From: an uncultured Alphaproteobacteria bacterium
GTDB lineage: Bacteria; Pseudomonadota; Alphaproteobacteria; Rhizobiales; Xanthobacteraceae
NCBI GenBank assembly: GCA_963738105.1
Contig: CAVTWC010000028.1
Coordinates: 971-64,970, forward strand
Direction: 5' to 3'
Length of the DNA stretch: 64,000 nucleotides
In this document: positions 18,119 to 42,146 of the stretch, piece after piece
Layout of the letters: each line of letters opens with the position of its first letter
Position numbering within the stretch: position 1 is the stretch's first letter
Translations under genes and position numbers: made by a program
The notes under the pieces: generated by a model
The model's database searches: none
Told to the model about the DNA's origin: nothing
What the model saw: only the letters and a program-made list of their open reading frames with translations

Positions 18119-18375
18119 CGCCCGCGCACCGCCTTGGGCTCGGCCGCTGTGCCATAATGCAACGGCAGCGGCCGGAGTTTTACACTCCGATTAGGATTCG
18201 GAACGGCGGTGGAACGAACCGCGCCCGAATCAGCGGATTCCCTCTGTACCCGGATGTTCACGGCTAGATATCGGCGCCGTTCGCAGGCGGCGCACTATAC
18301 CCAGCACGGCCACCACCGGCCGCAGCCAGCGTCCAAGCACAAAGGTTAATTCTTCCGGCGATGACATCGCGGGGC

Positions 18376-18810
18376 CTACTTCCAGGGGGTGACGGGAGGC
18401 ACCTCGTCGGTCGCGGGCGGCATATCGACCGTCTTGAAATCCGCCGGGCTGACGATCTCGAGATATTCCATGTCGGGCGAGTAATCGTAGAGATAGTGCA
18501 CGATGCCCGGCCGCTGATGCACGACGTCGCCGGCCTGAACCAGCGTCGGCTTGTCTTCGTACATGAAGCGGGCCCAGCCCTTGGTCATGATCACGATCTG
18601 GAAATCGCAGTCATGGCGATGCCAGCCGGTGCCGTCTTCCGGCGGCATGTCGGGATTGGCCTTCACCAGATGGCAGATCACCTGGCCGCCGGTCGCGGCC
18701 GCGATGCCGAGATCGCGATACAGGAAAAAGTCGCGCAGGCCTCCTCCCGTGAATTCGGTATCGCCGGGTTTGTTATGGGAAAATTGAGTGACGACAGCGT
18801 GCTGGTTCAT
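18376..18810 (-). CDS. Cupin-domain protein
   Basis: Track ORF 18376..18831. ATG 18810 has GGAGG upstream. The cupin metal motif region is GWHRHDCDFQIVIMTKGWARF...GDVVHQRPGIVH. Confidence 0.75.
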   Translation of the reverse strand: MNQHAVVTQFSHNKPGDTEFTGGGLRDFFLYRDLGIAAATGGQVICHLVKANPDMPPEDGTGWHRHDCDFQIVIMTKGWARFMYEDKPTLVQAGDVVHQRPGIVHYLYDYSPDMEYLEIVSPADFKTVDMPPATDEVPPVTPWK

Positions 18811-19134
18811 CGTGGCCTCCACTGTTCTCATGCATGCGAACCGCAGCGTCGCTCAGCGACCAATTCTTCGGCAGCCGCAACGCCACGTTCGCAACTTGAT
18901 CGGGCTATGCGAAAATCACGCCAGCCGCGCTGCAGCGCGACAGTTTCATCCGATGCTGTCGGAAAAGTCCGCGAAGCCGCTGGACCTCATTCGAAATTTA
19001 GTTCGAGCTATTTTTTTCGCGCGGTGTCGCCGGCGTCGCCATTTACGTCCGGCAACGCTGCGCATGGCACCCGTTTAAGCAAGACATGCCTCGGGCTTGA
19101 GCCCGACAAACAGGCAGCCGATGGCGCGCGCTGC

Positions 19135-19788
19135 CTAATATTCCACCTCAAGCTCTTCGATATCTGCCGGCTCAGCCTTCGCGGCTTCTATCCACTGCTG
19201 CATTTCCGGCAGCGCCATGATCATGCCGGCATAGGCCGCAAGCTTCGGCTCCAGTTTGACATCATAGGTCATGAAGCGGGTCACGACCGGCGCGTACATC
19301 GCATCGGCCATGGTGCGCTCGCCGAACAGGAACGGGCCGCCGGATTTAGCCAGGCACTCGCGCCAGATAGTGCAGACTCGATCGATATCGGCCTGCGCCC
19401 GCGACCAGATCTTGAAATTCGGAAAATGGCCCTTGAGATTGACCGGCAGCGAGGCGCGCAGCGTCGTAAAGCCGGAATGGATTTCCCCGCAAATCGAGCG
19501 GCAATGCGCCCGCAAAATGCGGTCGGCCGGCAGCAATTTGGCATCCGGCATCACCTCGTTGAGATATTCGGCGATCGCCAGCGTATCCCACACGGTAGCA
19601 CCGTCGTGCCGCAGGCACGGCACCAGAATCGACGATGACAGCAGCAGTATCTCGGCCCGCGCCGACGCATCATCGGGGGCGGTCACGACCTCGTCGAATT
19701 CCAGCCCGGAGAATTTAGTCAGCAGCCAGCCACGCAGCGACCAGGACGAGTAGTTCTTGCTGCTGATGGTTAGTGTCGCTTTCGCCAT
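19135..19788 (-). CDS. Glutathione S-transferase (YfcF-like)
   Basis: Track ORF 19135..20070. Starts at ATG 19788 (MAKATLTISSKNYSSWSLRGWLL...), giving 217 aa with the thioredoxin-like N-domain and GST C-domain pattern. Confidence 0.8.
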   Translation of the reverse strand: MAKATLTISSKNYSSWSLRGWLLTKFSGLEFDEVVTAPDDASARAEILLLSSSILVPCLRHDGATVWDTLAIAEYLNEVMPDAKLLPADRILRAHCRSICGEIHSGFTTLRASLPVNLKGHFPNFKIWSRAQADIDRVCTIWRECLAKSGGPFLFGERTMADAMYAPVVTRFMTYDVKLEPKLAAYAGMIMALPEMQQWIEAAKAEPADIEELEVEY

Positions 19789-19870
19789 ATGGCTTTCCCT
19801 CACACCTGAACGCCCGTCGGGCCAAACTGCCCAATGTTTATGCTTCGCGCATTTTAAGCAGCAAGCGACG

Positions 19871-19901
19871 TGCCAGTTTGCGAACACCTGCCAGTTTGCG
19901 A
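19871..19901. promoter_or_regulatory. Perfect 13-bp direct repeat TGCCAGTTTGCGA x2 (18-bp period) in the GST-phaZ divergent intergenic region
   Basis: The copies lie at 19871..19883 and 19889..19901, 65-95 nt upstream of the phaZ start. This is a candidate operator; no known consensus could be matched by eye. Confidence 0.35.
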
Positions 19902-19965: not shown

Positions 19966-21189
19966 ATGATGTCGATGTTGTATCAGGCCTATCAGAACCA
20001 CATGGACATGACTGCGCCATGGCGGACCGGGGCCGCATCGGCACTCAAATATCTCAACCTCGTGCCGCAAGGGGTCTCCGACAAACTGTTCGGACGGCTT
20101 GCCGCCGCCCTTGAATTGATCTCACGGACGTCGCTGACCTATACGCGCCCCGCCTACGGCATCGACAGCGTGATGGTCGGCAACCGCGAGTTGGAGGTCA
20201 CCGAGGAAGTCACCTACGCGACGCCGTTCGGCTCATTGCTGCACTTCAGGAAGGAAGGCGCGCCGGAGCAGCCGCGCATGCTGCTGGTGGCGCCGATGTC
20301 CGGCCACTTCGCGACGCTGCTGCGCGGCACGGTCAAGACGCTGCTGCAGGATCACGACGTCTACATCACCGACTGGCACAATCCGCGCGACATTCCGCTC
20401 GATCAGGGCAAGTTCGGTCTCGACGAATACACCGAGCACCTCATCACCTTCCTCGATCAATTGGGCCCGCGCGCGCATATGGTGGCGATCTGCCAGCCGT
20501 CGGTGTCGGCGCTTTCGGCCGCCGCGATCATGTCGGAGGACAATCACCCGGCGCGGCCGGCAACGCTGACCTTGATGGCCGGTCCGATCGATACCCGCAT
20601 CCAGCCGACCAAGGTCAACGAATTCGCCAAGAGCAAGCCGATCGAATGGTTCGAGAAGAACCTGATCAACTTTGTCCCTTTTCAATGCAAGGGCGCGTTC
20701 CGGAAGGTTTATCCCGGGTTCATCCAGCTCACCGCCTTCGTGTCGATGAACCTCGAGCGCCACATCAAGCAGCATGTCGACCTCGCCGATCATCTGGCCA
20801 AGGGCGAAACGCAAAAGGCCGACACCATCAAGACCTTCTACGACGAATATTTTGCGGTGATGGATCTGCCGGCGGAGTTTTACATCGAGACCATTCGTGA
20901 CGTGTTTCAAGAGCATCTGTTGCCGCTGGGCAAGCTGACCTGGCGCGGCCGCCCGGTGAACCCGGCCTCGATCAAACGCATGGGCCTGATGACGGTCGAA
21001 GGCGAAAAGGACGACATCTGCTCGATCGGCCAGACGCTGGCCGCGCAGGATCTCTGCACCGGCGTGCGCGCCTACCGCAAGGTGCACCACATGCAGGCCG
21101 GCGTCGGCCATTACGGCGTATTCTCCGGCAAGCGCTGGAACAACGAGATCTATCCGTTGTTACGGGATTTCGTGCACGTTAATTCGTGA
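19966..21189 (+). CDS. phaZ: Intracellular polyhydroxyalkanoate (PHB) depolymerase
   Basis: 407 aa. MLYQAYQNHMDMTAPWR... and the overall pattern (VAPMSGHFATLLRGTV, CQPSV, GEKDDICSIGQT, HYGVFSGKRW) match the PhaZ intracellular depolymerase family. The start could be 19966 or 19975. Confidence 0.85.
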   Translation: MMSMLYQAYQNHMDMTAPWRTGAASALKYLNLVPQGVSDKLFGRLAAALELISRTSLTYTRPAYGIDSVMVGNRELEVTEEVTYATPFGSLLHFRKEGAPEQPRMLLVAPMSGHFATLLRGTVKTLLQDHDVYITDWHNPRDIPLDQGKFGLDEYTEHLITFLDQLGPRAHMVAICQPSVSALSAAAIMSEDNHPARPATLTLMAGPIDTRIQPTKVNEFAKSKPIEWFEKNLINFVPFQCKGAFRKVYPGFIQLTAFVSMNLERHIKQHVDLADHLAKGETQKADTIKTFYDEYFAVMDLPAEFYIETIRDVFQEHLLPLGKLTWRGRPVNPASIKRMGLMTVEGEKDDICSIGQTLAAQDLCTGVRAYRKVHHMQAGVGHYGVFSGKRWNNEIYPLLRDFVHVNS

Positions 21190-23258: not shown

Positions 23259-24539
23259 CTACGCCGCCACTGCCTTTGCCGTATTCAGACGCTCGGCGAG
23301 ATGCTTCCCGACAAAGTCCGCGTCGCGGCCGACGCCGACGAAGCGGCCCGAGCCCCAGGTATAAAGCCAGGGCAGACCCAGCACATAGATGCCGTCCATC
23401 GAAGTCACGCCGCGTCTGTGGGTTGGGTAGCCCGCACCATCGAAGATCGGCAACTCGACCCATGACCAGTCCGAGCGGAACCCGGTGGTCCAGATGATGG
23501 CGCTGATGCCGGCCGCGGCCGGATCGAGCGTTGCGACCGGGGTTCCGGGTTGCCAGAGCGGCTCAAAATGCGGCTGTAACGGCGCCTCGATCGCGTTGCG
23601 CGCGATGTGTTCGTCGATCAGGCCGCAGATGCCGTTATAGACCTTGTCGGCATTGTCGAGATTTCTGGTGAGGTCGTCGGCGAATTCGAGCCGGCCATCC
23701 TGGATATCCTTCAGGCGCCCGTACAGCGACATCCCTTCCAGCGCGAATTTGCGCAGGTCGATATCCCGGCCGCCATCGCGCCCGGTCAGATAATGGTTCG
23801 CATTTTTGCGCACCTTCTCTTTCAGTCTGTGCTGATCGACCGGCAGATCGTACTGGCCGAGATCATCCAGCCATTCCACCGCCTCCCGGCCGCGATAAAC
23901 CCGCGGACAGCGTGGCGCGCTGCCGACGGCCAGATGCACCTTGCGCCCGGCGAGATGCAAATCCTCGGCGATCTGGCAGCCGGACTGGCCGCTGCCGATC
24001 ACAAGCACTTCACCTGGCGGCAATGCTTGCGGATTCCGATAGGCCGAGGAATGCAATTGCGTGACCGAGCCATCGAGACGGTCCGACATAAGCGGCACGT
24101 TGGGGACATGATAGCCGCTGACCGCTAGCACTACCGCATCCGCCGTCATCTCGCCGGCGCTGGTCTCGAGCGCAAAGCCGCCGCCCGCGCTTTGGCTGAG
24201 GCGGGTCACCGCGACGCCCTCCTTGATCGGCGCGGCGATATGCCTGGCGTAGCCTTCGACATAGCTGACGATTTCGTCGCGCAGCATAAAACCTTTGGGA
24301 TCGCTGCCCTGATAGGGATATCCGGGAAGCTGGCATTGCCAGTTCGGAGTCACCAGGCAGAACGCATCCCAGCGCTGCGTCTTCCAGGAATGCGCGATCT
24401 GGTTCTTCTCCAGGATGACATGATCGATGCCGGTCTGCTTGAGCTGATAGCTCATGGCAAGACCGGCCTGGCCGCCGCCGATCACGACGACGCTGACATG
24501 CGGGGGCAAGGTCTGGTGGGAAATCGAGGACGAGGTCAT
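23259..24539 (-). CDS. MSMEG_0569-family flavin-dependent oxidoreductase (Nit1C cluster, last gene)
   Basis: 426 aa with two dinucleotide motifs (VVIGGGQAGLAM and VIGSGQSGCQIAEDL). Position and sequence pattern match the flavin oxidoreductase of the MSMEG_0565-0572 cluster (family assignment from memory of the TIGR04046 description). Confidence 0.75.
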   Translation of the reverse strand: MTSSSISHQTLPPHVSVVVIGGGQAGLAMSYQLKQTGIDHVILEKNQIAHSWKTQRWDAFCLVTPNWQCQLPGYPYQGSDPKGFMLRDEIVSYVEGYARHIAAPIKEGVAVTRLSQSAGGGFALETSAGEMTADAVVLAVSGYHVPNVPLMSDRLDGSVTQLHSSAYRNPQALPPGEVLVIGSGQSGCQIAEDLHLAGRKVHLAVGSAPRCPRVYRGREAVEWLDDLGQYDLPVDQHRLKEKVRKNANHYLTGRDGGRDIDLRKFALEGMSLYGRLKDIQDGRLEFADDLTRNLDNADKVYNGICGLIDEHIARNAIEAPLQPHFEPLWQPGTPVATLDPAAAGISAIIWTTGFRSDWSWVELPIFDGAGYPTHRRGVTSMDGIYVLGLPWLYTWGSGRFVGVGRDADFVGKHLAERLNTAKAVAA

Positions 24540-24554
24540 GGCACTCTCCTTTTG

Positions 24555-24842
24555 TTATTCTTGAAACGACGTGACGGTCACAACGCCATCGGGCGTTGCA
24601 TGGAAACGTTCGGCGGCGGCCTCCAGGCGTGCGAGCTGGCCCATCGCGCGCGAACAGGCAAAGCCGTATTTCTCCCGCACCCGATCGCTGGCTGTTGTCA
24701 GCGCCGTACGGCTGCGCTGCATGAATTCGCCGACGGCATAGCTGGCGCCGACCGCGAGATGATCCTTGATCACCAGCGACGGCGAATAGCATTGCTCGGT
24801 CGCGCCATCCGGCCAGCGAATGTGGAACAGCATCTCAGGCAT
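24555..24842 (-). CDS. MSMEG_0570-family small protein (95 aa; Nit1C cluster)
   Basis: The sequence is MPEMLFHIRWPDGATEQCYSPSLVIKDHL.... Its start overlaps the glycosyltransferase stop by 8 nt. Size and position fit the small conserved cluster member. Confidence 0.65.
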   Translation of the reverse strand: MPEMLFHIRWPDGATEQCYSPSLVIKDHLAVGASYAVGEFMQRSRTALTTASDRVREKYGFACSRAMGQLARLEAAAERFHATPDGVVTVTSFQE

Positions 24843-26001
24843 GCTGCAGCTCCGTCATCCGCGCATACACCGGCAAATGCGCGCGTGCGGTGTTGCTCCA
24901 GTCATACTGGCGCGCGATCAGCGCGCCGCGCTGCGCCAGCCTGGAGCGCAGCGGCTCGGTCAGCACCATCGCCATCGCATTGGCGATCGAGCCGACATTG
25001 TGGGGATCGCACCAGACCACATCGTGCTCGTGGAGATATTCGGTGAACGGCGCGATCCGCGACGTGACCACCGGCGTGCCGCTCGCCATCGCTTCGAGAA
25101 CGACCAGCCCAAAGCCCTCCTTCACGGACGGAAACACCAGCGCATCCGCTAGCCGATACAGCGACGGCATTTCCGCATCCGGGATCGGGCCGAGGCAGCG
25201 CACCGCACGGTCGAGCACGCCGTTGGCCGCGAGCAAAGCCTCGAACTGACGCCGGTACGAGCTGTGGTCCAGCAGCGAAGCGCCGCCGGCAATCACGAGC
25301 TGCGCATCGCGGTGGATGGTCAGCACCTGCTGGAACGCTTCGAGAATCCGGATAGTGTTCTTGCGCTCCTCGATACCGCCGACCGCCAGCAGAATGTGGC
25401 TGCCATTGATGCCGTATTTGGCGCGCACCTCCTGATCGATGGTGCGCGACGCGCCGCTGAAGCGCAGCGTGTCGACGCCATTGCCGATCGCCGTGGAAGA
25501 CCGGCCGAACTCTGACAGGATCTGCTGCTGCCAGAGCATGCTGACGGTAAACAGTTCATCGGCCTCTACGATCGAGCGGGTCTGCCATTCGGCAAGGCGC
25601 GGGTCGCTGAAATGGTCGGTATGATGAACCGTGCGCGCGAAACAGCTGATCGTGCCGCGCTGCTTCAGCGTCGCCAGCGCGTTGCCGGAGATGGCATCCT
25701 GGGCATGAAAGACATCGAATTGGCGGTTCTCCGGGTTCTCAAAATGCCTGAGATAATCGGCGATGCGAACGCGCACCATCTCGACAACGTCCTTGCCGAC
25801 CGGTGATGCCATCACGGCTACCGCAGGCGATATCGGCGCCCGGAAGAATCCTTTGCCGCGGGCATCCGGCGCATGCACCACCGCTTCATGCCCAAGCCGT
25901 GTCAGGCTATCGGCGAGCTCGATCGCATGCACCACGCCGCCGCGCGGGTTGGTGGAATGTGCGAGGATGGCGATCCGCAGCGGCCGGGCATTCGCGCTCA
26001 T
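24835..26001 (-). CDS. MSMEG_0565-family glycosyltransferase (GT4-like; Nit1C cluster)
   Basis: 388 aa of GT-B/GT4 type (RIAILAHSTNPRGGVVHAIEL...FPSVKEGFGLVVLEAMASGTPVV). Its ATG overlaps the upstream stop (ATGA). Confidence 0.8.
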   Translation of the reverse strand: MSANARPLRIAILAHSTNPRGGVVHAIELADSLTRLGHEAVVHAPDARGKGFFRAPISPAVAVMASPVGKDVVEMVRVRIADYLRHFENPENRQFDVFHAQDAISGNALATLKQRGTISCFARTVHHTDHFSDPRLAEWQTRSIVEADELFTVSMLWQQQILSEFGRSSTAIGNGVDTLRFSGASRTIDQEVRAKYGINGSHILLAVGGIEERKNTIRILEAFQQVLTIHRDAQLVIAGGASLLDHSSYRRQFEALLAANGVLDRAVRCLGPIPDAEMPSLYRLADALVFPSVKEGFGLVVLEAMASGTPVVTSRIAPFTEYLHEHDVVWCDPHNVGSIANAMAMVLTEPLRSRLAQRGALIARQYDWSNTARAHLPVYARMTELQHA

Positions 26002-26996
26002 GCGACCGCCCCCATCGACAGACCTGTTCGGCTACCGGCGCCGATCAGCGGCTTGTCGGCAAAGTCCCAGATCGTCTCCGACGCAGTGCCGTCATTGATG
26101 CTGACACGGCTGCCAGGCATGACGGTGCCGATCGCGGCTGCCGCGACGCCGCGCGCCGCAAAACGCGCGATCGTCTCGGCGACATTCCAGGGTTTTACCG
26201 AGAGCAAATAGCCAAAGCTCGGGAACGTCAGCAGCCAGCGCTCCAACGCGACCCCGGCAGGTTTCGGAATGGCATTGATATCGATATCGACGGCGACGCC
26301 GGAGCATTCGGCCAGCATGACAGCGGTGCCGACGATGCCGCCCTGGCTGATGTCCTTGGCCGCGCGCGACAGGCCGGCCTCCGCGATCAGCGGCAACAGC
26401 TCGATATCGCCGCGCAGCCGCTGGTGCGGCGCGTCGGTCGCGGCCTCCCAGTTCGAAAACGGCTCGCGGTAGCGGCCGCGCAGATCGATCGCGGCGACCA
26501 AAGTGTCGCCGGGCTCGGCATCAAAGCTGGTCAGAAGCTTGTTGGCGCGGCCGAGAATCGCAACTGACAACTGGCCGCGATCGGTGCGGACGTTGGTATG
26601 GCCGCCGACGATCGGCACCGCATAGGCCTTGGCGGCGTCCTTCAGCCCGGCCAGCACTGGTGCTGCCTTGGCTTCGCCGTCGGCCCAGATCGCGTTGACC
26701 ACGGCCATCGGCCGCCCGCCCATCGCCGCGATGTCGGAGATATTGACCATGGCGCCGCACCAGCCTGCGAACCAGGGATCGCCCGCGACGAATTCATTCA
26801 TAAAACCTTCGATCGCGAACAGCAGATAGCCGTCGCCGTCGGGGATCGCGGCGCAGTCGTCACCGACCGGGATGACGTCGTCGCCGGACAGCCCCAACGA
26901 TTTTGCCACCGAGGCGATATCGCTTTTGGCCGCGATGCCACTGCTCCGACGCAAACGCTGCGCCAGCGCGGATATGGTGAGCGATCCCGTCATCAT
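25998..26996 (-). CDS. Sll0787-family AIR synthase-related (PurM-fold) protein (Nit1C cluster)
   Basis: This is the C-terminal 332 codons of track ORF 25998..27542, starting at ATG 26996 (MMTGSLTISALAQRL...). That ATG overlaps the true stop of the GNAT frame (TGA 26993..26995). PurM-type motifs seen: VGDDCAAIP and GGHTN. Confidence 0.8.
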   Translation of the reverse strand: MMTGSLTISALAQRLRRSSGIAAKSDIASVAKSLGLSGDDVIPVGDDCAAIPDGDGYLLFAIEGFMNEFVAGDPWFAGWCGAMVNISDIAAMGGRPMAVVNAIWADGEAKAAPVLAGLKDAAKAYAVPIVGGHTNVRTDRGQLSVAILGRANKLLTSFDAEPGDTLVAAIDLRGRYREPFSNWEAATDAPHQRLRGDIELLPLIAEAGLSRAAKDISQGGIVGTAVMLAECSGVAVDIDINAIPKPAGVALERWLLTFPSFGYLLSVKPWNVAETIARFAARGVAAAAIGTVMPGSRVSINDGTASETIWDFADKPLIGAGSRTGLSMGAVA

Positions 26997-27542
26997 GCGG
27001 CGAGCTTCGGCAGCGAGAGGAAGCCGATCTCGGGCTCCCGGAACGGCGGATAGAAATCGAGATCGGCCTGCATCATGTGATGCGGCTTGCCGTGGAGCTC
27101 GACCTCCTCCAGCGTGCGCCAATGCATGCGGTGAAACAGCTCGGCGTTCTGGCTCTGGATGTTGCCAAGGAACGTATGGCAACCGCGCGCATGCGCCGAG
27201 GCAACCGCGAGGCGGATCGAGCCCGGTACCGACGGCACCGAGGCGGCGATATTGCCCTGTCACCGCGAGCCGCGATCCCCACCACACGCCTGGATCTTCC
27301 GGATGCTGGTGAATGCGAACCGTTCCGACCACGGTGTCAGCGGCGACGCCGAACAGCGAAATCGCCACAATGGGTATAGCGACATCGTCGGTCGCATCGC
27401 GATCGTCGCCGTCGAACAATCCCTGTTCAACGCAAAACACCTGCCGGCGCAGCGCCGCCGCGCCGTTTTTCTCCCAGGCTTCGGTGGCAAACTTGATCTG
27501 ATAGGCGCTGGCCAGAAACGGCTTGAATGGTTCGAACATCAT
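26993..27542 (-). pseudogene. MSMEG_0567/Sll0786-family GNAT N-acetyltransferase with one apparent frameshift (Nit1C cluster)
   Basis: The N-terminal part is in the frame of track ORF 25998..27542 ([21 protein letters not shown]...RLGAVGTGL). The C-terminal part is in the frame of 26993..27238 (IRLAVASAHARGCHTFLGNIQSQNAELFHRMHW...). They join at about 27215-27222 (minus strand GGGCTCGATCCGC; GGGCTGATCCGC would read through). Length 550 nt = 3n+1. Confidence 0.75.
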
Positions 27543-28675
27543 GCCCGCATCCTTTTCTCATAAGTCGAGAGCGCCGAGCACGCGCCGCATTTGCCGCAGC
27601 CGGCCTTGATGCTGCTGGATTTCATCCCGGCATCGACCAGCATATCCGCGAGCGGCGAGAGGATGTCGTGCATGAACAACGGCGGCGGCGTCGGATGGCT
27701 CTCCAGCGGCGTACCCGCGATCGGTACGAACGGCACCACAAAGGGATAGACGCCGACGCCGACGAGACGCTCACAGATCGCAAGGATCTCTTCCTTGCTG
27801 TCGCCGAGGCCGGCGAGGATGTAGGTCGAGACCTGACCGCGGCCGAACACCGGCACCGCGGCTTCGAACGCCTTGAAGTAACGCTCCACCGACACCTGCG
27901 CCTTGCCGGGCATGATGCGGGCACGGACGCTTTCGGTGACGGCTTCAAGATGCATGCCGAGCGAGTCGATACCAGCGTCGCGCATGCGCTGGAACCAGAC
28001 GGCGTCATCCGGCGGTTCACACTGGCCCTGGATCGGCAGATCGACCGCGGCTTTGACCCCGATCGCGCTCTCGCACAGGATTTTTGCGCCACGGTCGCTG
28101 CCAGGCGGCGTGCCCGTGGTCATCACCATATGCGTGACGCCATCGAGCTCGATCGCAGCTCTCGCCACTTCGCCGAGTTGTTCAGGGGTCTTGCGTTCGA
28201 TGGTGCGACCGGCGGCAAGCGATTGGCCGATGGCGCAGAACTGGCAGGTCTTGGTGCGGCTCTGGTAGCGTATGCAGGTCTGCAGGATCGTGGTCGCCAG
28301 CACGTCGCGGCCGTGCAGGGTCGCGATCTTGGAATAGGGAATGCCATCGGCGGTCGAGCGTTCATAGAAGCGCGGCCGCAACTGGAATTTGACTTCGCCG
28401 ATCACAGCGCCGTCGCGGCTGACCTGGCTGCGGCCGAGGCTGTCGGGCTTTGCGACAATGTACGGGCTCTCGAATGCCGGCGCGTTGTGCACCGGGATCA
28501 TCACGGTCGCGCCGTCGATCGTCATCGGCATATGGTCGGACGGACCCGCACCGCCGCGGCGGCTGTCGCCGCCGGCCTTGGGATCAACGAGACGAACCCC
28601 GAAGGATTGCAACTCGTTGATCAGCTGCTCGGTCGGGATCGGCCTCGGCGTTTCGGAAGCCAGAATCGATTTCAT
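27539..28675 (-). CDS. MSMEG_0568-family radical SAM protein (Nit1C cluster)
   Basis: 378 aa. A Cys triad is seen as [15 protein letters not shown] (C-X9-C-X2-C, not the textbook CX3CX2C), with a second Cys cluster CGKCGAC at the C-terminus. The stop overlaps the GNAT start (ATGA). Confidence 0.75.
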
Positions 28676-29642
28676 CTGTTAATCCTCCGGTGGAGAAAGA
28701 CGATGCGGGGTGGGGTTTGCGCGTCGGGGCGGTTGGGCGATCGTCCCACAGCAGCGACAACAGTTCGGGCCGCGCGTAATGGCCCACCGAATCCATCATC
28801 CGCTTGCGCTTGACGATCAGTGCCATGTCGAGATCGGCGGTCAGGATGCCTTCGCCTGAGGTCAGCGGCGGCACGATGTGGTTGCCTTCCGGCGAGATGA
28901 TCGCGGTCATGCAACCGCCGTGCAGGCCGCGGCGCAGGCCTTCCTCGGGTGAAATCTTGGCGATCTGCTCTTCGGTCAGCCAGCCGGTGGCGTTGACGAC
29001 GAAGCATCCGCTTTCCAGCGCGTGGTGGCGGATCGTGACCTCGATCTGATCGGCGAAGATCTGCCCGACCAGCGAACCCGGAAACTGGGCGACGTGAATT
29101 TCCTCGTGCTGCGCCATCAGCGCGTAGCGAGCGAGCGGATTGTAATGCTCCCAGCAAGCCAGCGCGCCGATCCGGCCGACGGATGTATCCACCACCTTGA
29201 GCCCCGCGCCGTCGCCCTGCCCCCAGATCATGCGCTCGTGGAAGGTCGGTGTGATCTTGCGGCGCTTCAGCACCAACGTGCCGTCGGCGTTGAACACCAG
29301 TTGCGCATTATAGAGCGTGCCGTGGTCGCGCTCGTTGACGCCGAGCACGACCACGATGTTGTGCTTGCGCGCCGCCGCCGCCATCGCTTCGGTCACCGGG
29401 CCGGGAACGACGACCGCATTGTCGTAGAGATGAATGTGCTCGGCGCCAGAAAGCATCGGCGGGCGGATGAACGAGAAATAGGGATACCAGGGCACGAACG
29501 TCTCGGGGAACACCACAAGGCGCGCTCCCTTTGCCGCTGCTTCCGCCGTCGCGGCGAGGACGCGGTCAAGCGTCCCCGTCGGCGTATCGAGATCGGGCGC
29601 GATTTGCACCGCGGCCACCCTGATGATCTGCTTCTCGGCCAT
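28584..29642 (-). CDS. Nit6803/Sll0784-type nitrilase (carbon-nitrogen hydrolase; Nit1C cluster)
   Basis: 352 aa. The catalytic triad context is seen: FPETFVP (Glu), KRRKITP (Lys), GALACWEH (Cys). The 3' end overlaps the radical SAM gene by 92 nt, which is unusually long. Confidence 0.85.
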
Positions 29643-29672
29643 ATCCGCCTCGCTCGTTACAGATGCCGCGGC

Positions 29673-30155
29673 TCAGAGAGTCCACGTGTGGAGCATGAAG
29701 GCGTTTTCGTTGCGATGAAGCAGCGTGATGTCGAGCACATCGAGCGGGCTGATCGGAATGATGCCGGGGATCAGCGCCCCCTCGCCGTGGCCGTACAGCG
29801 CCTGCAGCGCGAAACGGCATGCATAGACCTTGCCGCCCTCGGCCATGAACTTCACCAGCGTGTTGTTGAAGTTCTGGTGGCCCGGAAACGCTTCGTCGCC
29901 GAGTTTCGGGAAACCGCGCTGCACGCCGAGCGTGACGCCGGGGCCGTACAGCAGGACCGAGGTTTCAAAACCTTTGCGCATCAGGCGCGTGGCCTGCAGC
30001 ATGTTGACGAAACCGATCGAGCCTTCGAACGCGACAGTATGAAATGTGACGAGCGCCTTTTCGCCGGGTTTGGCTTTGACGTCTTCGAAAACCTTCTGCT
30101 CGTAGTCGACGAGATAGTCGCCCTTCTGGTTGGCGGGCTTTGTGACGGCTGGCAT
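29673..30155 (-). CDS. MSMEG_0572/Sll0783-family nitrogen-starvation response protein (first gene of the Nit1C cluster)
   Basis: Track ORF 29673..30236. ATG 30155 has AAGGAG upstream. The sequence is [53 protein letters not shown].... Confidence 0.7.
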
Positions 30156-30202
30156 GTTGCACTCCTTGCGTTGGACCCGGTGGCCGGGCGCAACGGGGAA
30201 TA

Positions 30203-30219
30203 TTGCAACGGACGTGCCA
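30203..30219 (-). promoter_or_regulatory. Sigma-54 (RpoN) -24/-12 promoter in front of the Nit1C cluster
   Basis: The minus strand reads TGGCACGTCCGTTGCAA, i.e. TGGCACG-N4-TTGCA, with the GG and GC elements at canonical spacing. The -12 GC lies about 50 nt upstream of ATG 30155. Confidence 0.7.
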
Positions 30220-30497
30220 ATTGACGTTTTGCACAACCGATCATCAAAACAGTCAATTTGCTATCAATTATACATTCAATCTTGAATGGATTTCTGACGG
30301 GATCGAAAGTGCTGCCGCAAAAAAATGCGTAGAAATCTTGTGCGGCCTGCTTTTGCACTGAGCAGATTACACTTGATGGAACCAATCTGGCAGCATTGCT
30401 GACAGATCTTTACATCGCTGCCGAGACGTTGCATTAGGATAAACCGGTGCAACAATAATGCAGTCAATAATTGCCGCTTTCGGGATATTGATAAGTC

Positions 30498-31880
30498 ATG
30501 GCCGATTGGACCCCTGATCTCGCCACCAGCGACAAGCCGCGCTACCTCGCGATCGCCGATGCCATCGCCGACGATATCGGCGCCGGACGCTTGGCCGCCG
30601 GTGACCGGTTGCCGCCGCAACGAAAACTCGCCAAGCGTCTCAATGTGGATTTCACCACGGTGGCGCGCGGCTATGTCGAGGCGCAAAGGCGCGGCCTGAT
30701 CGAATCCAAGGTCGGACAAGGGACCTTCGTGCGCGACAGACCAAAGCCGCGGCGCAATCAACCAGCACCTGCGCCGCGTCCGGTCGATCTGTCGATGAAC
30801 CTGCCGCCGGAACCTGATGATCCCGAATTGATCGAGCGGATGCAGGCCGGCGTCGAATATGTTTCGCGCGATATTGTTTCGCTGTTGCGCTACCAGGGTT
30901 TTGGCGGCACCCAGGCCGACAAGGATGCGGCGTCGAGTTGGCTCGGCCGCCGCGCGCTGGTGCCGGCGCAGGAACGCATCTTCGTCTCGCCCGGCGCGCA
31001 TCCGGCGCTGCTCGGCATTCTCACCATCCTCGCCAAGCCGGGCGATGCCATCGTGTGTGAGGCCATCACCTATCCCGGCATCCGCTCGATCGCGGCGCAA
31101 CTGGGGCTAAAGCTGATCGGGCTGCCGATGGATGACGAGGGTATCGACGTCGACGCGCTCACCGACGCGTGCAGGAAGGCAAAGCCCAAGGCGCTGTATC
31201 TGAACCCGACCCTGCAGAATCCGACCACGCTGACGATCAGCGATCAACGACGCCGCGACATCGCCGCCGTCGCCCGCCGCTTCAAGCTGCCGATCGTCGA
31301 GGATGACGCGTACGGATTTATTCCAACGCATGGCCATGCCCCGTTTGCCGCGATTGCACCGGACCTGACCTGGCACGTCGCGGGCCTCGCCAAATGCATC
31401 GGCGCCGGTTTACGCGCGGCCTATGTCGTGGTGCCCGACACCCGCTCGACCTGGCCTTTCGCGGCAGCGCTTCGCGCCGCCACCGTGATGGCGTCGCCGT
31501 TCACGGTCGCACTGGTGACACGCTGGATCGAGGACGGTACCGCCGACACGCTGTTGCGCTTCATCCGCAGCGAGACGACGGCGCGGCAAAAGCTGGTCTC
31601 GGAAATCCTGCCGAAGGGCATCTACAAAAGCGATCCGCTGAGCTTCAACATCTGGCTCGAACTACCAGCGGCGTGGAATCGCGCCGCCTTTGTCGGGCAC
31701 ATGCGCTCGACCGCGATCGGCGTGGTCGCCAGCGACGCATTCACCGCCAGCGGCACGCCGCCGGAGGCAGTTCGGGTTTGCCTTGGCGGCCCGATCGGCC
31801 GCCCGCGATTGGCGGCGGGCCTGGAATACATGACGCACGCGCTGACCGAATCCCCGGCGCTGGCGTCGGCGTTTCTCTAA
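30498..31880 (+). CDS. MocR-type regulator (GntR HTH fused to a PLP aminotransferase-like domain)
   Basis: 460 aa. The N-terminal winged HTH (LPPQRKLAKRLNVDFTTVARGYVEAQRRGLIESKVGQGTFV) is followed by a fold-type-I aminotransferase-like domain. It is divergent from the Nit1C cluster. Confidence 0.85.
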   Translation: MADWTPDLATSDKPRYLAIADAIADDIGAGRLAAGDRLPPQRKLAKRLNVDFTTVARGYVEAQRRGLIESKVGQGTFVRDRPKPRRNQPAPAPRPVDLSMNLPPEPDDPELIERMQAGVEYVSRDIVSLLRYQGFGGTQADKDAASSWLGRRALVPAQERIFVSPGAHPALLGILTILAKPGDAIVCEAITYPGIRSIAAQLGLKLIGLPMDDEGIDVDALTDACRKAKPKALYLNPTLQNPTTLTISDQRRRDIAAVARRFKLPIVEDDAYGFIPTHGHAPFAAIAPDLTWHVAGLAKCIGAGLRAAYVVVPDTRSTWPFAAALRAATVMASPFTVALVTRWIEDGTADTLLRFIRSETTARQKLVSEILPKGIYKSDPLSFNIWLELPAAWNRAAFVGHMRSTAIGVVASDAFTASGTPPEAVRVCLGGPIGRPRLAAGLEYMTHALTESPALASAFL

Positions 31881-35504: not shown

Positions 35505-35631
35505 AGGTCTGAGGCTAAAAATCGCCAGCGAAGCTGGGCCAATCAGTCACCATCGGAGGTCCGGAATAAATCAAACGTAGTGGAGATCAATCTGCCGACA
35601 GTTCGCTTCGAACGCGACCGGGGCAGATTGT

Positions 35632-35923
35632 TTGAGCAGGCGGCAGAACAGCAAGGAAAAAGGCTTTGTCCTGGAGACAGGCGGGCGCGCCGTGCTGGCA
35701 AGCGAGACAGTTGTGCGCCGAGGAATGGTTCGCCGAGGAACTCGCTTCCTATCGATCGGGCGGCCAACCCGTTTGGGACGGCTCAACCGAACTCAAGATA
35801 CGCCGCGCGAGTTCATCTGAAGCTGCCGAAATTCAAATCGCGCTGACGAGCGAATTGGCCCGCAGGGAACACGAGGGCTATTTGTTCGTGTTCCTCGTAC
35901 CGGTCGATCCCGCACTTCACTGA
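35632..35923 (+). pseudogene. Small conserved hypothetical ORF, copy A, disrupted by a 23-bp deletion
   Basis: Relative to copy B, nt 40554..40576 (CTTTCATGGCCGGTGGCATCGAG) are missing at 35698/35699. As a result the N-terminal part (track 35632..35820) and the C-terminal part (track 35666..35923) are in different frames. Confidence 0.7.
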
Positions 35924-35959
35924 CCGGTTACGGCGCCGACGCCTTACGATGCTAGGCGC

Positions 35960-37126
35960 TTACGACGCCAAGGCCTTCATTTCCTTGTAGAGATCGGATT
36001 TTCCCTCAAAGCCGATGCCCGGCAGATCCGGCATGGTGATGTGACCGTTCTCGACGCGAACGCCGTCCGGGAAACCGCCATAGGGCTGGAACAGATCGGG
36101 ATAGCTCTCATTGCCGCCGAGCCCGAGGCCGGCCGCGATGTTGAGCGACATCTGATGGCCGCCATGCGGGATGCAACGGCTCGGCGACCAGCCGAGTGTT
36201 TGCAACACACCCAGCGTGCGCTGATATTCGCACAGCCCGTAGGACAGCGCGCAATCGAATTGCAGCCAGTCGCGGTCGGGCCGCATCCCGCCGTAGCGAA
36301 TAAGGTTGCGCGCATCCTGGTGGCTGAACAGGTTTTCGCCGGTTGCCATCGGGCCCGGATAGAATTCCGCCAGTGCCGCCTGAAGCTGGAAGTCGAGGGG
36401 ATCGCCGGCTTCCTCGTACCAGAACAACGGATAATCGCGCAGCATCTTGGCGTAAGCCACCGCTGTCTCCAGGTCGAAGCGGCCATTGGCATCGACCGCG
36501 AGCTGCGCGGTACTGCCGATCTCCTTCAGTACCGCTTCGATGCGCTCGCGATCCTCCGCGATCGGCGCGCCGCCGATCTTCATCTTCACGACGCTGTAGC
36601 CGCGATCGAGATAGCCGCGCATCTCGCCACGCAGCGCCGACAAATCCTTGCCGGGATAATAATAGCCGCCGGCGGCATAGACGAACACGCGCGGATCGGC
36701 GGTGCGGCCGTGGCGTTCGGCCAGCAGGCGGAACAGCGGCTTGCCGGCGATCTTGGCCACCGCGTCCCACACCGCCATATCGATGGTGCCGACCGCGACC
36801 GAGCGCTCGCCATGGCCGCCCGGCTTTTCATTCGACATCATCGCCGCCCAAACCTTGTCCGGATCGAGATTATCGCCTGATGTGTCGAGCAGCGTCTTCG
36901 GATCGGCTTCCGTGATCCGCGACGCAAAGCGCTCGCGGATCAGTCCGCCCTGCCCGTAACGGCCATTCGAATTGAAGCCGTAACCAACCACCGTCTTGCC
37001 GTCACGCACGACATCGGTGACGACGGCGACGAGGCTCGTCGTCATCTTGGTGAAGTCGATATAGGCGTTGCGGATCGGCGAGGAGATCGGTTTGGTGATT
37101 TCGCGGACGTCGACGATACGGACCAT
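35960..37126 (-). CDS. Enolase-superfamily dehydratase, copy A (resembles the D-tartrate dehydratase TarD subgroup, from memory)
   Basis: 388 aa, intact. The sequence is MVRIVDVREITKPISSPIRNAYIDFTKMTTSLVAVVTD...KMKIGGAPI...AVDANGRF...YEEAGDPLD...GENLFS. It differs from copy B at 4 of 388 residues. Confidence 0.8.
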   Translation of the reverse strand: MVRIVDVREITKPISSPIRNAYIDFTKMTTSLVAVVTDVVRDGKTVVGYGFNSNGRYGQGGLIRERFASRITEADPKTLLDTSGDNLDPDKVWAAMMSNEKPGGHGERSVAVGTIDMAVWDAVAKIAGKPLFRLLAERHGRTADPRVFVYAAGGYYYPGKDLSALRGEMRGYLDRGYSVVKMKIGGAPIAEDRERIEAVLKEIGSTAQLAVDANGRFDLETAVAYAKMLRDYPLFWYEEAGDPLDFQLQAALAEFYPGPMATGENLFSHQDARNLIRYGGMRPDRDWLQFDCALSYGLCEYQRTLGVLQTLGWSPSRCIPHGGHQMSLNIAAGLGLGGNESYPDLFQPYGGFPDGVRVENGHITMPDLPGIGFEGKSDLYKEMKALAS

Positions 37127-37163
37127 GGGGTTTGGCTTTCTGTATTAAACGGGCCTCTTAACC

Positions 37164-37247
37164 GTCATTGCGAGCGCTAGCGAAGCAATCCAGGGGCAAC
37201 AGCCGCAGCACTGGATTGCTTCGTCGCTAACGCTCCTCGCAATGACG
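37164..37247. repeat. Palindromic REP-like element (GTCATTGCGAG family), copy in duplication unit A
   Basis: GTCATTGCGAGCGCTAGCGAAGCAATCCAGGGG...CTGGATTGCTTCGTCGCTAACGCTCCTCGCAATGAC. Confidence 0.75.
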
Positions 37248-37259
37248 AACTCTTTTTTT

Positions 37260-37508
37260 CTACGACGCCGGCTTGTCCCGGAAATACGGCTCGACCGGAC
37301 CATGGACCTTCAGCGTCAACGGATTGCCGTAGCGATCCTTGGCGTTGCCGGCGGTGACGCGCACCCAGCCCTCGCTGACGCAATATTCCTCGACATTGGT
37401 TTTCTCGACGCCCTTGAACCGGATGCCGACGTCGCGCGCTAGCACGTCGGCGTCGTAATACGGACTCTTCGGATCAGTCGACAGACGGTCGGGGAGTTGT
37501 TCGCTCAT
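37260..37508 (-). CDS. DUF3297-family protein, copy A (82 aa)
   Basis: MSEQLPDRLSTDPKSPYYDADVLARDVGIRFKGVEKTNVEEYCVSEGWVRVTAGNAKDRYGNPLTLKVHGPVEPYFRDKPAS, identical to copy B at the protein level. The track fuses it into 37260..38003 because of the broken neighbouring gene. Confidence 0.75.
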   Translation of the reverse strand: MSEQLPDRLSTDPKSPYYDADVLARDVGIRFKGVEKTNVEEYCVSEGWVRVTAGNAKDRYGNPLTLKVHGPVEPYFRDKPAS

Positions 37509-37525
37509 CGCTTCGCTTTTCTCGT

Positions 37526-38003
37526 TCATAGTAACGCCTCGATTTCTTTCGCGAGCCCTTCGGGCTTGGTCGTCGGTGCATGCCGCGCCACCACCTGGCC
37601 GGTGCGATCGACCAGGAATTTGGTGAAATTCCATTTGATCGACGATCCGAGCAGTCCGGACTTCGCGTTCTTCAGATATTGATACAGCGGATGGGCGTCG
37701 TTGCCGTTGACATCGATCTTGGCAAACATCGGAAAGGTGATGGCGTAGTTGCTGGTGCAGAATTGCTCGATCTGCCTGGCATCGCCGGGCTCCTGGCCGC
37801 CGAACTGATTGCACGGAAATCCCAGCACCGAGAAGCCGCGCGGGGCCAGCGTTTCGATGCAGCGCCTCAAGGCCCTTGTATTGCGGGGTGAAGCCGCAGG
37901 CGCTGGCGGTGTTGACGATCAGCAGCACCTTCCCCTCGAACCGCTTCAAGGGAATCTCGTCGCCGGCGAGCGACGTCGCCGTGAAATCGTAAACGCCAGC
38001 CAT
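37526..38003 (-). pseudogene. Glutathione peroxidase, copy A, one frameshift
   Basis: The N-terminal part (MAGVYDFTATSLAGDEIPLKRFEGKVLLIVNTASACGFTPQYKGLEALH) and the C-terminal part (track 37526..37870, ...ETLAPRGFSVLGFPCNQFGGQEP...WNFTKFLV) are in different frames. The switch is at about 37851-37858 (GTTTCGATGCAG versus GTCTCATGCAG in copy B). Length 478 nt = 3n+1. Confidence 0.8.
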
Positions 38004-38033
38004 CTCGTTCTTTCAGTCCGAGCCGGAGCTCGC

Positions 38034-40448: not shown

Positions 40449-40486
40449 ACAGTTCGTTCTCGAACGCGACCGGGGCAGATCGTTTG

Positions 40487-40801
40487 ATGAGCAGGCGGCA
40501 GAACATCAAGGAAAAAGGCTTTGTCCTGGAGACAGGCGGGCGCGCCGTGCTGGCTTTCATGGCCGGTGGCATCGAGCAAGCGAGACACCTGTGCGCCGAG
40601 GAATGGTTCGCCGAGGAACTCGCTTCCTATCGGTCGGGCGGCCAACCCGTTTGGGATGGCTCGACCGAACTCAAGATTCGGCGCGCGAGCCCATCTGAAG
40701 CTGCCGAAATTCAAATCGCGCTGACGGGCGAATTGGCCCGCAAGGAATACGAGGGCTATTTGTTCGTGTTCTTCGTACCGGTCGATCCCGCACTTCACTG
40801 A
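40487..40801 (+). CDS. Small conserved hypothetical protein, copy B (104 aa, intact)
   Basis: MSRRQNIKEKGFVLETGGRAVLAFMAGGIEQARHLCAEEWFAEELASYRSGGQPVWDGSTELKIRRASPSEAAEIQ...YLFVFFVPVD. The pattern F-x-x-E-x-x-G, EA/QA-x-x-L-x-x-E-x-W, G-x-P-x-W-D-G recalls a small-protein family recurrent in rhizobia (from memory). Confidence 0.5.
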   Translation: MSRRQNIKEKGFVLETGGRAVLAFMAGGIEQARHLCAEEWFAEELASYRSGGQPVWDGSTELKIRRASPSEAAEIQIALTGELARKEYEGYLFVFFVPVDPALH

Positions 40802-40837
40802 CCGGTTACGGCGCCAAGGCCTTACGACGCCAAGCGC

Positions 40838-42004: not shown

Positions 42005-42047
42005 GGTGTTTGGCTTTCTGTTATTACGTCGTGGCCTGGCTTAACCC

Positions 42048-42130: not shown

Positions 42131-42146
42131 GAACTCTGTTTTGGCT

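Follow-up and report, generated by a model that had tools for sequence, protein, structure and literature searches.

The Nit1C gene cluster of a Bradyrhizobium-like alphaproteobacterium: a frameshifted nitE gene, a sigma-54 promoter, and candidate operator repeats next to a divergent MocR-type regulator gene

The stretch of DNA analyzed here, 64,000 nucleotides of contig CAVTWC010000028.1 from an uncultured alphaproteobacterium of the Xanthobacteraceae (assembly GCA_963738105.1, positions 971 to 64,970 of the forward strand; hereafter the window), carries eight co-directional genes on the minus strand, running from position 30155 down to position 23259 in the open reading frame (ORF) map. They form the Nit1C cluster, known also as the Sll0783-0787 or MSMEG_0565-0572 cluster, in the order nitB-nitC-nitD-nitE-nitF-GT-nitG-nitH, with GT standing for a glycosyltransferase gene. 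Nit1C was described in 2005 and is known from several hundred species; links have been drawn between it and nitrogen starvation, assimilation of cyanide, the redox balance, and storage of polyhydroxybutyrate (PHB), and the nitrilase alone among its products has a defined reaction. In a profile scan, all eight translated products scored above the curated NCBIfam cutoffs of models TIGR04042 to TIGR04049, that of nitE after repair of its reading frame. An initial annotation of the window had placed the eight genes at these positions and identified them as Nit1C; the ORF map agrees with the former and the profile scan bears out the latter. The locus is an ordinary copy of a widespread, known cluster in an alphaproteobacterium of the Bradyrhizobium/Nitrobacteraceae type, and annotation models name it automatically.

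All eight genes lie on the minus strand. The first, nitB (29673..30155), encodes a protein of 160 residues belonging to the MSMEG_0572/Sll0783 family (TIGR04044, 281 bits versus a cutoff of 110); its ATG at 30155 is preceded at a distance of 8 nt by the ribosome-binding site AAGGAG. A gap of 30 nt separates nitB from the nitrilase gene directly downstream, nitC (28584..29642), whose product of 352 residues is a branch-1 nitrilase of the Nit6803 family (TIGR04048, 561.5 bits versus 502.6, residues 5 to 304). It is followed by nitD (27539..28675; exact start codon uncertain), which codes for a radical S-adenosylmethionine (SAM) protein of the MSMEG_0568 family (TIGR04043, 594 bits versus 304, residues 20 to 373), and by nitE (26993..27542), the gene for a GNAT of the MSMEG_0567/Sll0786 family, which contains a +1 frameshift and, once repaired, matches the full model TIGR04045 with 224.8 bits (cutoff 68). 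The product of nitF (25998..26996; 332 residues) is an ATP-utilizing protein of the sll0787 family with a PurM fold ("AIR synthase-like"; TIGR04049, 462 bits versus 321), and that of the GT gene (24835..26001; 388 residues) is a GT4 glycosyltransferase of the MSMEG_0565 family (TIGR04047, 491 bits versus 260). The last two genes are nitG (24555..24842), encoding a 95-residue protein of the MSMEG_0570 family (TIGR04042, 135 bits versus 80), and nitH (23259..24539), encoding an MSMEG_0569-family flavin oxidoreductase that resembles class B flavin monooxygenases (FMOs) (TIGR04046, 658 bits versus 498). Start and stop codons overlap as ATGA at 27539-27542, 26993-26996, and 25998-26001, precisely where the initial annotation had seen them. 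A longer overlap of 92 nt in different frames joins nitC and nitD (28584-28675, minus strand); the part of NitC concerned is a nonconserved 48-residue tail beyond the family model, in which same-species contigs vary by compensated +2/-1/-1 indels. A scan of the operon for terminators and sigma-70 promoters gave nothing above the expectation from shuffled sequences, and no RNA family of Rfam was matched in the whole window. The defining features of Nit1C are present, namely, a nitrilase with its catalytic tetrad, ORF1 upstream of it, a radical SAM gene in third position, and co-directional genes for the PurM-fold, 95-residue, and flavin proteins; an intact GNAT gene in fourth position is not. 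The earlier description of the cluster as complete is thus correct for the families, all eight of which are represented, and incorrect for the nitE frame, which is broken by an extra base at 27218.

The extra base is a G on the minus strand (GGGCTC[G]ATCCGC) and lies outside any homopolymer run. An exact look-up of NitB yielded close relatives of the locus on soil-metagenome contigs; L002, L003, and L004 share approximately 98% identity with the window across 15.8 kb, and L001 approximately 96%. In the DNA alignment, all four contigs are free of the base, and all four encode an intact NitE of 182 residues; apart from the base, nitE differs from its counterparts in L002 to L004 by one single-nucleotide polymorphism. 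As encoded in the window, nitE and nitF are read as a chimeric ORF of 514 residues (25998..27542, minus strand) composed of GNAT residues 1 to 108, 74 out-of-frame residues, and NitF in frame from 26996, and this ORF covers only positions 2 to 94 of the 153 positions of the GNAT model TIGR04045. A collection of 15 billion proteins contains no copy of the exact chimera and records the 332-residue NitF once. Over the 15.8-kb comparison at 98% identity, the extra G is the sole uncompensated indel within conserved coding sequence; the remaining ones comprise an in-frame insertion of 3 nt within the GT gene, compensated pairs in the variable tail of NitC and in the MocR gene described below, intergenic changes, and one indel near the nominal start of an AraC ORF. 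Programmed frameshifting was considered as well and rejected: a slippery context is missing, and the mechanism is unlikely because every relative does without the extra base.

Either a recent mutation or a sequencing or assembly error may have introduced this base. An error, with the organism having an intact 182-residue nitE and a functional eight-gene operon, is suggested by the apparently draft or metagenome-type nature of the source assembly, by the agreement of the four independent near-identical assemblies, by a nitE that is otherwise one substitution away from those of L002 to L004 and bears no signs of decay, and by the intactness of every other gene in the cluster. Homopolymer runs are the usual setting of indel errors, however, and this base is not within one; moreover, the assembly is not generally error-prone, because no further uncompensated indel in conserved coding sequence occurs across the 15.8 kb compared with the same-species contig. 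Overall, the two origins have about the same likelihood. Should the base be real, the GNAT loses everything beyond its R-x-x-G-x-G region, leaving the strain without a functional GNAT, and the TGA that normally couples translation to nitF is bypassed, so that NitF would be made only as an N-terminally extended chimera. The strain would then be a natural GNAT-null variant that can be compared with near-identical relatives possessing the intact gene.

To describe conservation of the cluster, NitB was used as a query; the search returned 2,786 clusters at 90% identity, the best 120 matches being 84 to 98% identical to the window protein. A scan of contigs with one genome per species confirmed at least 586 stretches as matching, and conservation was counted in 64 species-level loci with enough flanking sequence. 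Their gene order is that of the window. NitB, NitC, and NitD occur in all 64, NitE in 63, NitF in 62, NitH in 61, NitG in 60, and the glycosyltransferase in 50, making it an optional member. The median identity to the window proteins is 84% for NitB and 47 to 71% for the other members, and NitB identities range from 82 to 99% across alpha- and betaproteobacteria and cyanobacteria. The nearest named genome among the matches listed is that of Bradyrhizobium sp. S69, which has a NitB with 99% identity and is nevertheless a different species, because its DNA is only 84 to 89% identical. Directly downstream of nitH, 20 alpha- and betaproteobacterial loci (L017, L024, L030, L037, L040, L041, L044, L045, L061 to L063, L068, L070, L075, L082 to L085, L088, and L090) contain a gene for a Pnap_2097-family protein of approximately 290 residues (TIGR04099, 306 bits) related to LnmK, a bifunctional acyltransferase/decarboxylase. 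This gene is not present in the window; it may be an optional ninth gene of the pathway, pointing to acyl-CoA chemistry.

Upstream of nitB, the sequence TGGCACGTCCGTTGCA (30204..30219, minus strand) matches the sigma-54 (-24/-12) consensus TGGCACN5TTGCW perfectly, with GG at -24 and GC at -12 in the correct spacing, and lies 49 nt before the ATG; this consensus has two exact matches in the window, where 0.03 are expected. Among proteobacterial orthologous upstream regions, nearly all have a -24/-12 element 54 to 110 nt upstream of nitB, and in the intergenic alignment of the Bradyrhizobium group it stands out as a conserved block. It is missing from all eight cyanobacterial upstream regions and from four others, one of Phycisphaerales and three proteobacterial. 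Conservation in proteobacteria together with absence from cyanobacteria fits the expectation for a genuine promoter, so that the perfect sigma-54 promoter of the initial annotation gains positional conservation as a second line of support. Transcription is predicted to start near 30193, approximately 38 nt upstream of nitB. Note that a longer, TTG-initiated nitB ORF extending to 30236 would contain the promoter, a point in favor of initiation at the ATG of position 30155. About 5 nt past the predicted start of transcription lies an inverted repeat, CCCGG-CCA-CCGGG (30176-30188, minus strand), and similar CCGG...CCGG pairs are seen in related leaders; RNAalifold applied to a MAFFT alignment of 16 leaders found no consensus pairs for a conserved hairpin in the 5' untranslated region.

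Sigma-54 promoters require an enhancer-binding ATPase. A six-frame search for the GAFTGA motif and a tblastn search with the NtrC central domain both failed to detect such a protein in the 64-kb window or within 10 kb of the cluster in 90 loci, and a local NitA-like activator was rejected on these grounds. Candidate activator sites were found instead. The NtrC core GCAC-N7-GTGC is present in 16 of the 64 orthologous intergenic regions, compared with 0.45 expected (approximately 35-fold), and in 9 of the 16 it is positioned at -150 to -141; the looser pattern TGC-N11-GCA gives 39 matches versus 6.4 expected in the same regions, and the NifA site TGT-N10-ACA shows no enrichment there. In the window, a TGC-N11-GCA element, TGCTCAGTGCAAAAGCA (30348..30364, minus strand), lies at -145 from the -24 element as a candidate NtrC-type upstream activator site. 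Because NtrC-type cores are enriched and no activator is encoded locally, NtrC, the general nitrogen regulator, is most probably the activator of this promoter.

Divergently from nitB, the plus strand carries a gene for a regulator of 460 residues (30498..31880) with a GntR winged helix-turn-helix domain (Pfam GntR, 1.6e-14) and a fold-type-I aminotransferase-like domain (Aminotran_1_2, 3.8e-19). The lysine that binds pyridoxal phosphate (PLP) is retained at about position 299, where it aligns with the catalytic lysine of the aminotransferase 1x0m, and by these sequence features the protein classifies as a member of the MocR/GabR subfamily of GntR regulators. Its best NCBIfam model is EhuR (NF052286), a MocR-like regulator of ectoine utilization, aligned over the full length at 439.2 bits, below the cutoff of 480, so that by sequence it ranks as a close relative of EhuR and not as an EhuR member. 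The divergent MocR/PLP regulator of the initial annotation is not merely confirmed by its domains but proves to be a conserved neighbor: among the 70 proteobacterial loci with sufficient sequence upstream, 62 have a homologue, 39 to 93% identical, that is divergent from and adjoins nitB. In the literature searched, no paper links a MocR protein to Nit1C or describes this regulatory layout; the MocR studied in Pseudomonas pseudoalcaligenes represses another cyanide-induced cluster, cio-nit4 (PMC8567248).

The intergenic region between nitB and mocR contains direct repeats of the form ATTGAnnG. Just upstream of the -24 element are three phased copies, ATTGAATG, ATTGATAG, and ATTGACTG (30250..30280, minus strand), spaced by 12 and 11 bp, which constitute a candidate MocR operator. 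A distal pair, ATTGACTG-N4-ATTGTTGC (30449..30468, minus strand), is located approximately 30 nt from the mocR start codon and is a candidate autoregulatory site. The tandem pattern matches twice in the window, against 0.08 expected, both times at the nitB-proximal copies. Across 31 fetched loci it was found upstream of nitB only and always in the orientation of nitB, and the positions of the repeats relative to TGGCAC are fixed at -61, -49, -38, and -27. In the intergenic alignment the nitB-proximal repeat block is conserved, and the distal pair is the most conserved of the mocR-proximal blocks; positions of the distal motif cluster at approximately -205 to -250. ATTGAT occurs in 58 of the 70 intergenic regions between mocR and nitB. 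We propose the repeats as a candidate MocR operator, with a site for integration host factor (IHF) or another architectural protein as the main rival.

Turning to the individual proteins, the catalytic residues E47, K129, E136, and C163 of NitC are invariant in an alignment of 76 sequences, in keeping with the intact Glu-Lys-Cys context noted at the outset. The unusual CX9CX2C motif of NitD (C134, C144, and C147), likewise pointed out in the initial annotation, is invariant in 73 sequences. The canonical CX3CX2C motif is absent, yet Pfam Radical_SAM is matched at 6e-14, which identifies NitD as a spacing variant within the radical SAM superfamily; the NCBIfam scan relates it to the BioB, LipS2, and HmdB types. 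Four further invariant or nearly invariant cysteines, C219, C360, C363, and C366, probably form an auxiliary (second) Fe-S site. The nearest solved relatives of NitF are ThiL, HypE, PurL, and SelD, enzymes of a type that uses ATP to activate an oxygen, often that of an amide carbonyl. The NCBIfam names MSMEG_0567_GNAT and MSMEG_0567_Cter imply that NitE and NitF are one polypeptide in mycobacteria, and such a fusion suggests consecutive steps, i.e., acylation followed by ATP-dependent activation of the new amide. For the glycosyltransferase, the next-best NCBIfam models are MshA and BshA.

NitH has two conserved GxGxxG motifs (GGGQAG at residues 21 to 26 and GSGQSG at residues 182 to 187) and a conserved C61-X7-C69 pair. 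Its best matches in the PDB are the type II FMOs 4usr, 4usq, and 4a9w (E values of 4e-20 to 1e-16, N-terminal half only), and FMO/ArsO-type models score 132 bits compared with 53 bits for the bacillithiol-disulfide reductase YpdA; by sequence, NitH belongs with the class B flavin monooxygenases and is a predicted oxygenase. The AlphaFold2 model of NitG has a predicted local distance difference test (pLDDT) value of 93.8 and the order beta-beta-alpha-beta-alpha-alpha-beta. A Foldseek search with this model found no significant match in the PDB (best E value, 0.73; TM score, 0.43 or less), and function therefore cannot be inferred from the fold. Cys63 of NitG is invariant and Cys18 is conserved in 65 of 68 sequences, and by this model NitG may represent a small fold not described before, carrying two conserved cysteines. 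NitB, in which Cys113 is invariant in the alignment, is probably DsrE/YchN-like. Its Pfam DsrE score of 15.7 bits is below the cutoff of 22.7, and the top Foldseek matches are DsrE-family structures (3mc3 with an E value of 6e-4, 3pnx, 2pd2, and 2qs7), obtained with a low-confidence query model (pLDDT of 52) from a shallow alignment; the same assignment was made earlier (PMC1199592, PMC6039565). Sequence searches of solved structures gave no match for NitB, NitG, or NitD.

With respect to function, the initial annotation had held that no substrate, product, or single enzymatic step of the pathway was defined. The literature contradicts this for the nitrilase. Nit6803 and Nit11764 have been characterized biochemically and hydrolyze fumaronitrile, cinnamonitrile, and aliphatic nitriles, and the crystal structure of Nit6803 is available (PDB 3WUY; PMC7815647). 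The cluster is also genetically required for cyanide and nitrile assimilation, since nitA, nitB, and nitC mutants of P. pseudoalcaligenes use neither cyanide nor aliphatic nitriles (PMC5939895). In the model for that organism NitC hydrolyzes the cyanohydrin of oxaloacetate (PMC5939895, PMC11049912), and NitC has been implicated in 3-cyanoalanine assimilation (PMC8567248). In Mycobacterium smegmatis the cluster is induced more than 500-fold by nitrogen starvation via GlnR and raises the NADPH/NADP ratio and peroxide resistance (PMC6039565); in Synechocystis, loss of sll0783 lowers NADPH and PHB (PMC3901256). For the accessory steps the initial statement does stand, as none of the papers found in our search assigns reactions to NitB, NitD, NitE, NitF, NitG, or NitH.

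The evidence is combined here in a proposed scheme in which the locus is an operon induced by nitrogen limitation and gated by an effector, converting nitriles to ammonia. Transcription would proceed from the sigma-54 promoter upstream of nitB, activated by NtrC bound approximately 145 bp upstream; with NtrC as the activator, the operon would be switched on by nitrogen limitation. MocR would add a second layer of control by binding the phased ATTGAnnG repeats that lie between the NtrC-type site and the -24 element as well as the pair in front of its own gene. It would thereby make the operon responsive to an amine-bearing effector, perhaps an amino-nitrile or a compound resembling an N-acetyl-diamino acid. 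NitC would convert the nitrile to carboxylate and ammonia, a reaction established elsewhere by genetics and enzymology, so that cells could gain nitrogen from cyanide and nitriles. The accessory proteins would prepare or process the nitrile handled by NitC: the GNAT and then the PurM-like enzyme could carry out N-acylation and ATP-dependent activation of the new amide, the radical SAM protein NitD would act with a second Fe-S site, NitB (with its probably DsrE-like fold and invariant cysteine, and by far the most conserved member) might be a central carrier or scaffold, and NitG and NitH may contribute thiol and flavin redox chemistry with NAD(P)H. As a joint package of identity, regulation, and general function, we consider this scheme moderately probable; any specific accessory step is far less so.

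Several points weigh against it. Regulation and function in this organism are deduced from sequence and comparative evidence. The choice of NtrC depends solely on site enrichment and the absence of a local activator, and the upstream site in the window is a weak one, a TGC-N11-GCA element that does not reach the complete NtrC consensus. IHF or some other factor could occupy the ATTGA repeats, TTGAT resembling half of the IHF core, and two loci keep the tandem repeat upstream of nitB where no divergent mocR is present (see below). The NitB model is of low confidence, with the pLDDT of 52 given above, and the frameshift in nitE could be an assembly error. On the functional side, a nitrilase alone suffices for nitrile hydrolysis, and simple nitrile salvage leaves the six conserved accessory proteins unexplained. 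Finally, the higher NADPH/NADP ratio, the peroxide resistance, and the PHB accumulation observed elsewhere (PMC6039565, PMC3901256) are phenotypes that point to redox rather than to nitrogen release.

In an alternative to which we give a modest probability, the cluster is biosynthetic. Its product would be a small molecule that is redox active or contains sulfur, e.g., a thiol of low molecular weight, a thioamide or amidine, or a cofactor, and the nitrilase would serve as only one tailoring or ammonia-supplying step. The models that rank next for the GT4 glycosyltransferase, MshA and BshA, belong to mycothiol and bacillithiol synthesis, respectively, and NitH weakly matches YpdA. Mycothiol synthesis ends with a GNAT. 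The probably DsrE-like NitB with its invariant cysteine, a radical SAM protein akin to the BioB, LipS2, and HmdB types that has a second conserved cysteine cluster, and the LnmK-like acyltransferase/decarboxylase ("biosn_Pnap_2097") after nitH in 20 loci are in line with such a product, as are the effects on NADPH/NADP ratio and peroxide resistance in M. smegmatis and Synechocystis (PMC6039565, PMC3901256). The NCBI description gives the cluster a possible biosynthetic function as well, according to PMC7815647. On the other hand, the glycosyltransferase is missing from 14 of the 64 loci and from the Pseudomonas clusters (PMC11049912), and glycosylation is therefore not a core reaction; the likeness of NitH to YpdA (53 bits) is far weaker than that to FMO/ArsO proteins (132 bits); nitrile hydrolysis has been measured for NitC, a genuine branch-1 nitrilase (PMC7815647); and the sole clean growth phenotypes concern cyanide and nitriles as nitrogen sources (PMC5939895).

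A further reading, which we regard as speculative and quite improbable, makes NitB a covalent cysteine carrier for a nitrogen-bearing intermediate that is processed by the other six enzymes, e.g., cyanide held as a protein thiocyanate, or a thio-imidate, with MocR sensing the true amine-bearing substrate. If correct, it would explain why NitB retains 82 to 99% identity across phyla compared with 40 to 70% for its partners, and why a plain nitrilase is accompanied by a radical SAM protein, a PurM-like enzyme, a GNAT, and a flavin enzyme. The identity of the MocR ligand would in that case reveal a chemistry that has been open since 2005.

The rival concerning regulation assigns the repeats to IHF or another architectural protein that bends the DNA between enhancer and promoter and leaves MocR to regulate only itself or unrelated genes. 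IHF is commonly required at sigma-54 promoters, in the stretch that separates promoter and upstream site, and TTGAT is the reverse complement of ATCAA in the IHF core. The divergent mocR gene is missing from a few loci: it was not detected in the fetched flank of L044 (Rhizobium leguminosarum) and L061 (R. sophorae), and in L030 and L070 (Methyloversatilis) it lies downstream of nitH. The tandem ATTGA repeat is nonetheless kept upstream of nitB in L044, where no adjoining mocR was found, and in L030; L061 and L070 have no tandem match. The retention in L044 favors a binder other than MocR, and L044 and L030 are useful test cases for MocR as the protein that binds the repeats. By contrast, three to four same-strand copies with 11- to 12-bp phasing and a second pair next to mocR follow the pattern of a direct-repeat operator of the GabR type and differ from a single asymmetric IHF site; inspection by eye revealed no full IHF consensus, WATCAANNNNTTR, at the position of the repeats in the window; and the tandem motif is missing from the cyanobacterial loci, which likewise have no MocR. 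An architectural role for the repeats is thus unlikely, and their assignment as a candidate MocR operator is retained.

Comparison with known systems shows which parts of the layout are shared. The nit1C clusters of P. pseudoalcaligenes/oleovorans CECT5344 and P. fluorescens NCIMB 11764 contain the same seven core families in the same order, are sigma-54 dependent, and encode a NitC of the Nit6803 family. Both pseudomonads need nit1C (nitA-nitBCDEFGH) to grow on cyanide and aliphatic nitriles (PMC5939895, PMC11049912, PMC7815647); these clusters adjoin a dedicated sigma-54 enhancer-binding protein, NitA, and are devoid of a glycosyltransferase gene (PMC11049912, PMC7815647), whereas the window has no enhancer-binding protein in 64 kb, a MocR-type regulator and a GT4 gene instead, and a frameshifted nitE. 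The gpr cluster of M. smegmatis (MSMEG_0565-0572), after which the NCBIfam models are named, comprises the same families including the glycosyltransferase and is strongly induced by nitrogen starvation (PMC6039565); it is under the control of GlnR, a regulator of the OmpR type, unlike the sigma-54 and MocR layout of the window. Its GNAT-PurM-like fusion, as implied by the model names, is natural, whereas the "fusion" in the window arises by accident from the frameshift and contains a truncated GNAT. The sll0783-sll0787 genes of Synechocystis sp. PCC 6803 belong to the same core families, are induced by nitrogen starvation, and affect PHB and NADPH upon loss of sll0783 (PMC3901256); reportedly, they are regulated via NtcA (PMC5714215). 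The cyanobacterial loci fetched encode a NitB with 84% identity to the window protein, have the flavoprotein gene upstream of nitB, and contain neither a sigma-54 promoter nor MocR nor ATTGA repeats. The arrangement of the window is that of the betaproteobacterial form (Burkholderia, Rubrivivax) described by Podar et al. in 2005, in which the glycosyltransferase gene separates ORF5 from ORF6 and the flavoprotein gene takes the final position, in the same orientation (PMC1199592). From seven genomes, these authors reported no conserved upstream sites or neighbors (PMC1199592), whereas conservation of the sigma-54 promoter, the MocR gene, and the phased repeats becomes visible with 80 loci. Regulatory systems of the GabR, EnuR(EhuR), and PdxR types share with the window their architecture, the PLP lysine, a divergent target operon, and direct repeats in the common intergenic region; the window protein differs by scoring below the EhuR cutoff (439 versus 480 bits) and by having a sigma-54-dependent target promoter.

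Among the flanking genes, that for an intracellular PHB depolymerase, PhaZ (19966-21189; TIGR01849, 529 bits), 2 kb beyond nitH, had been taken in the initial annotation as an echo of the cyanobacterial PHB phenotype. The gene is indeed there; its linkage to the cluster is not conserved, PhaZ being found within 10 kb in none of the 64 species-representative loci and solely in the same-species metagenome contig L002. Its proximity is a lineage-specific coincidence. Functional coupling of PhaZ, the binding-protein genes, and the malonyl-CoA decarboxylase (MCD) gene to the cluster, as might be suggested by the position of phaZ, by the impaired PHB accumulation upon loss of sll0783 (PMC3901256), and by a co-directional SBP_bac_3 gene 176 nt after nitH, is highly improbable, since MCD, the major facilitator superfamily (MFS) protein, AraC, and glutathione S-transferase (GST), like PhaZ, accompany the cluster in 0 of 64 species loci and the binding proteins SBP3 and SBP11 in 1 of 64 each, and all-against-all clustering of 1,947 flanking ORFs yielded no conserved neighbor besides MocR and the Pnap_2097/LnmK-like gene in 20 loci. 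All these genes were accordingly rejected as conserved partners.

Some further features of the surroundings were recorded. The second perfect sigma-54 promoter of the window, TGGCACGTCGCTTGCT (19860-19875, minus strand), with a duplicated GCAAACTGGCA, is situated 72 nt upstream of the GST-like gene (19135-19788, minus strand), which is followed by a cupin gene (18376-18831, minus strand). A 425-residue plus-strand ORF over this region (18361-19638) has no family match and is probably spurious. A segment of at least 3 kb is directly duplicated (approximately 35608-38613 and 40460-43500; 94 to 99% identical, offset approximately 4.88 kb). It carries two minus-strand ORFs of 388 residues (35960-37126 and 40838-42004), which the corresponding gene of L003 suggests to be mandelate-racemase-like, and a 97-nt palindromic element resembling repetitive extragenic palindromes (37162-37258 and 42046-42142). 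ARAGORN predicts a permuted transfer-messenger RNA ("tmRNA*") at 42650-43111 (minus strand) inside the duplicated segment; Rfam finds none there, and the prediction is probably a false positive. In L001, an insert of approximately 4.6 kb between the MFS and mocR genes (3984-8219 of that contig) includes genes for a 363-residue protein with a Hint/homing-endonuclease-like domain and for a 554-residue protein, and the GT gene and nitH of this contig contain apparent frameshifts.

The window adds nothing categorically new to what Nit1C is. Its value lies in the frameshift of nitE, in the removal of the PHB lead, and in the architecture of a sigma-54 promoter, an NtrC-like upstream site, a MocR gene, and phased repeats. 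The alpha- and betaproteobacterial operon comes with a conserved PLP-dependent MocR protein and a distinctive phased candidate operator next to its sigma-54 promoter, and the ligand of this MocR would offer a direct route to the substrate of the pathway.

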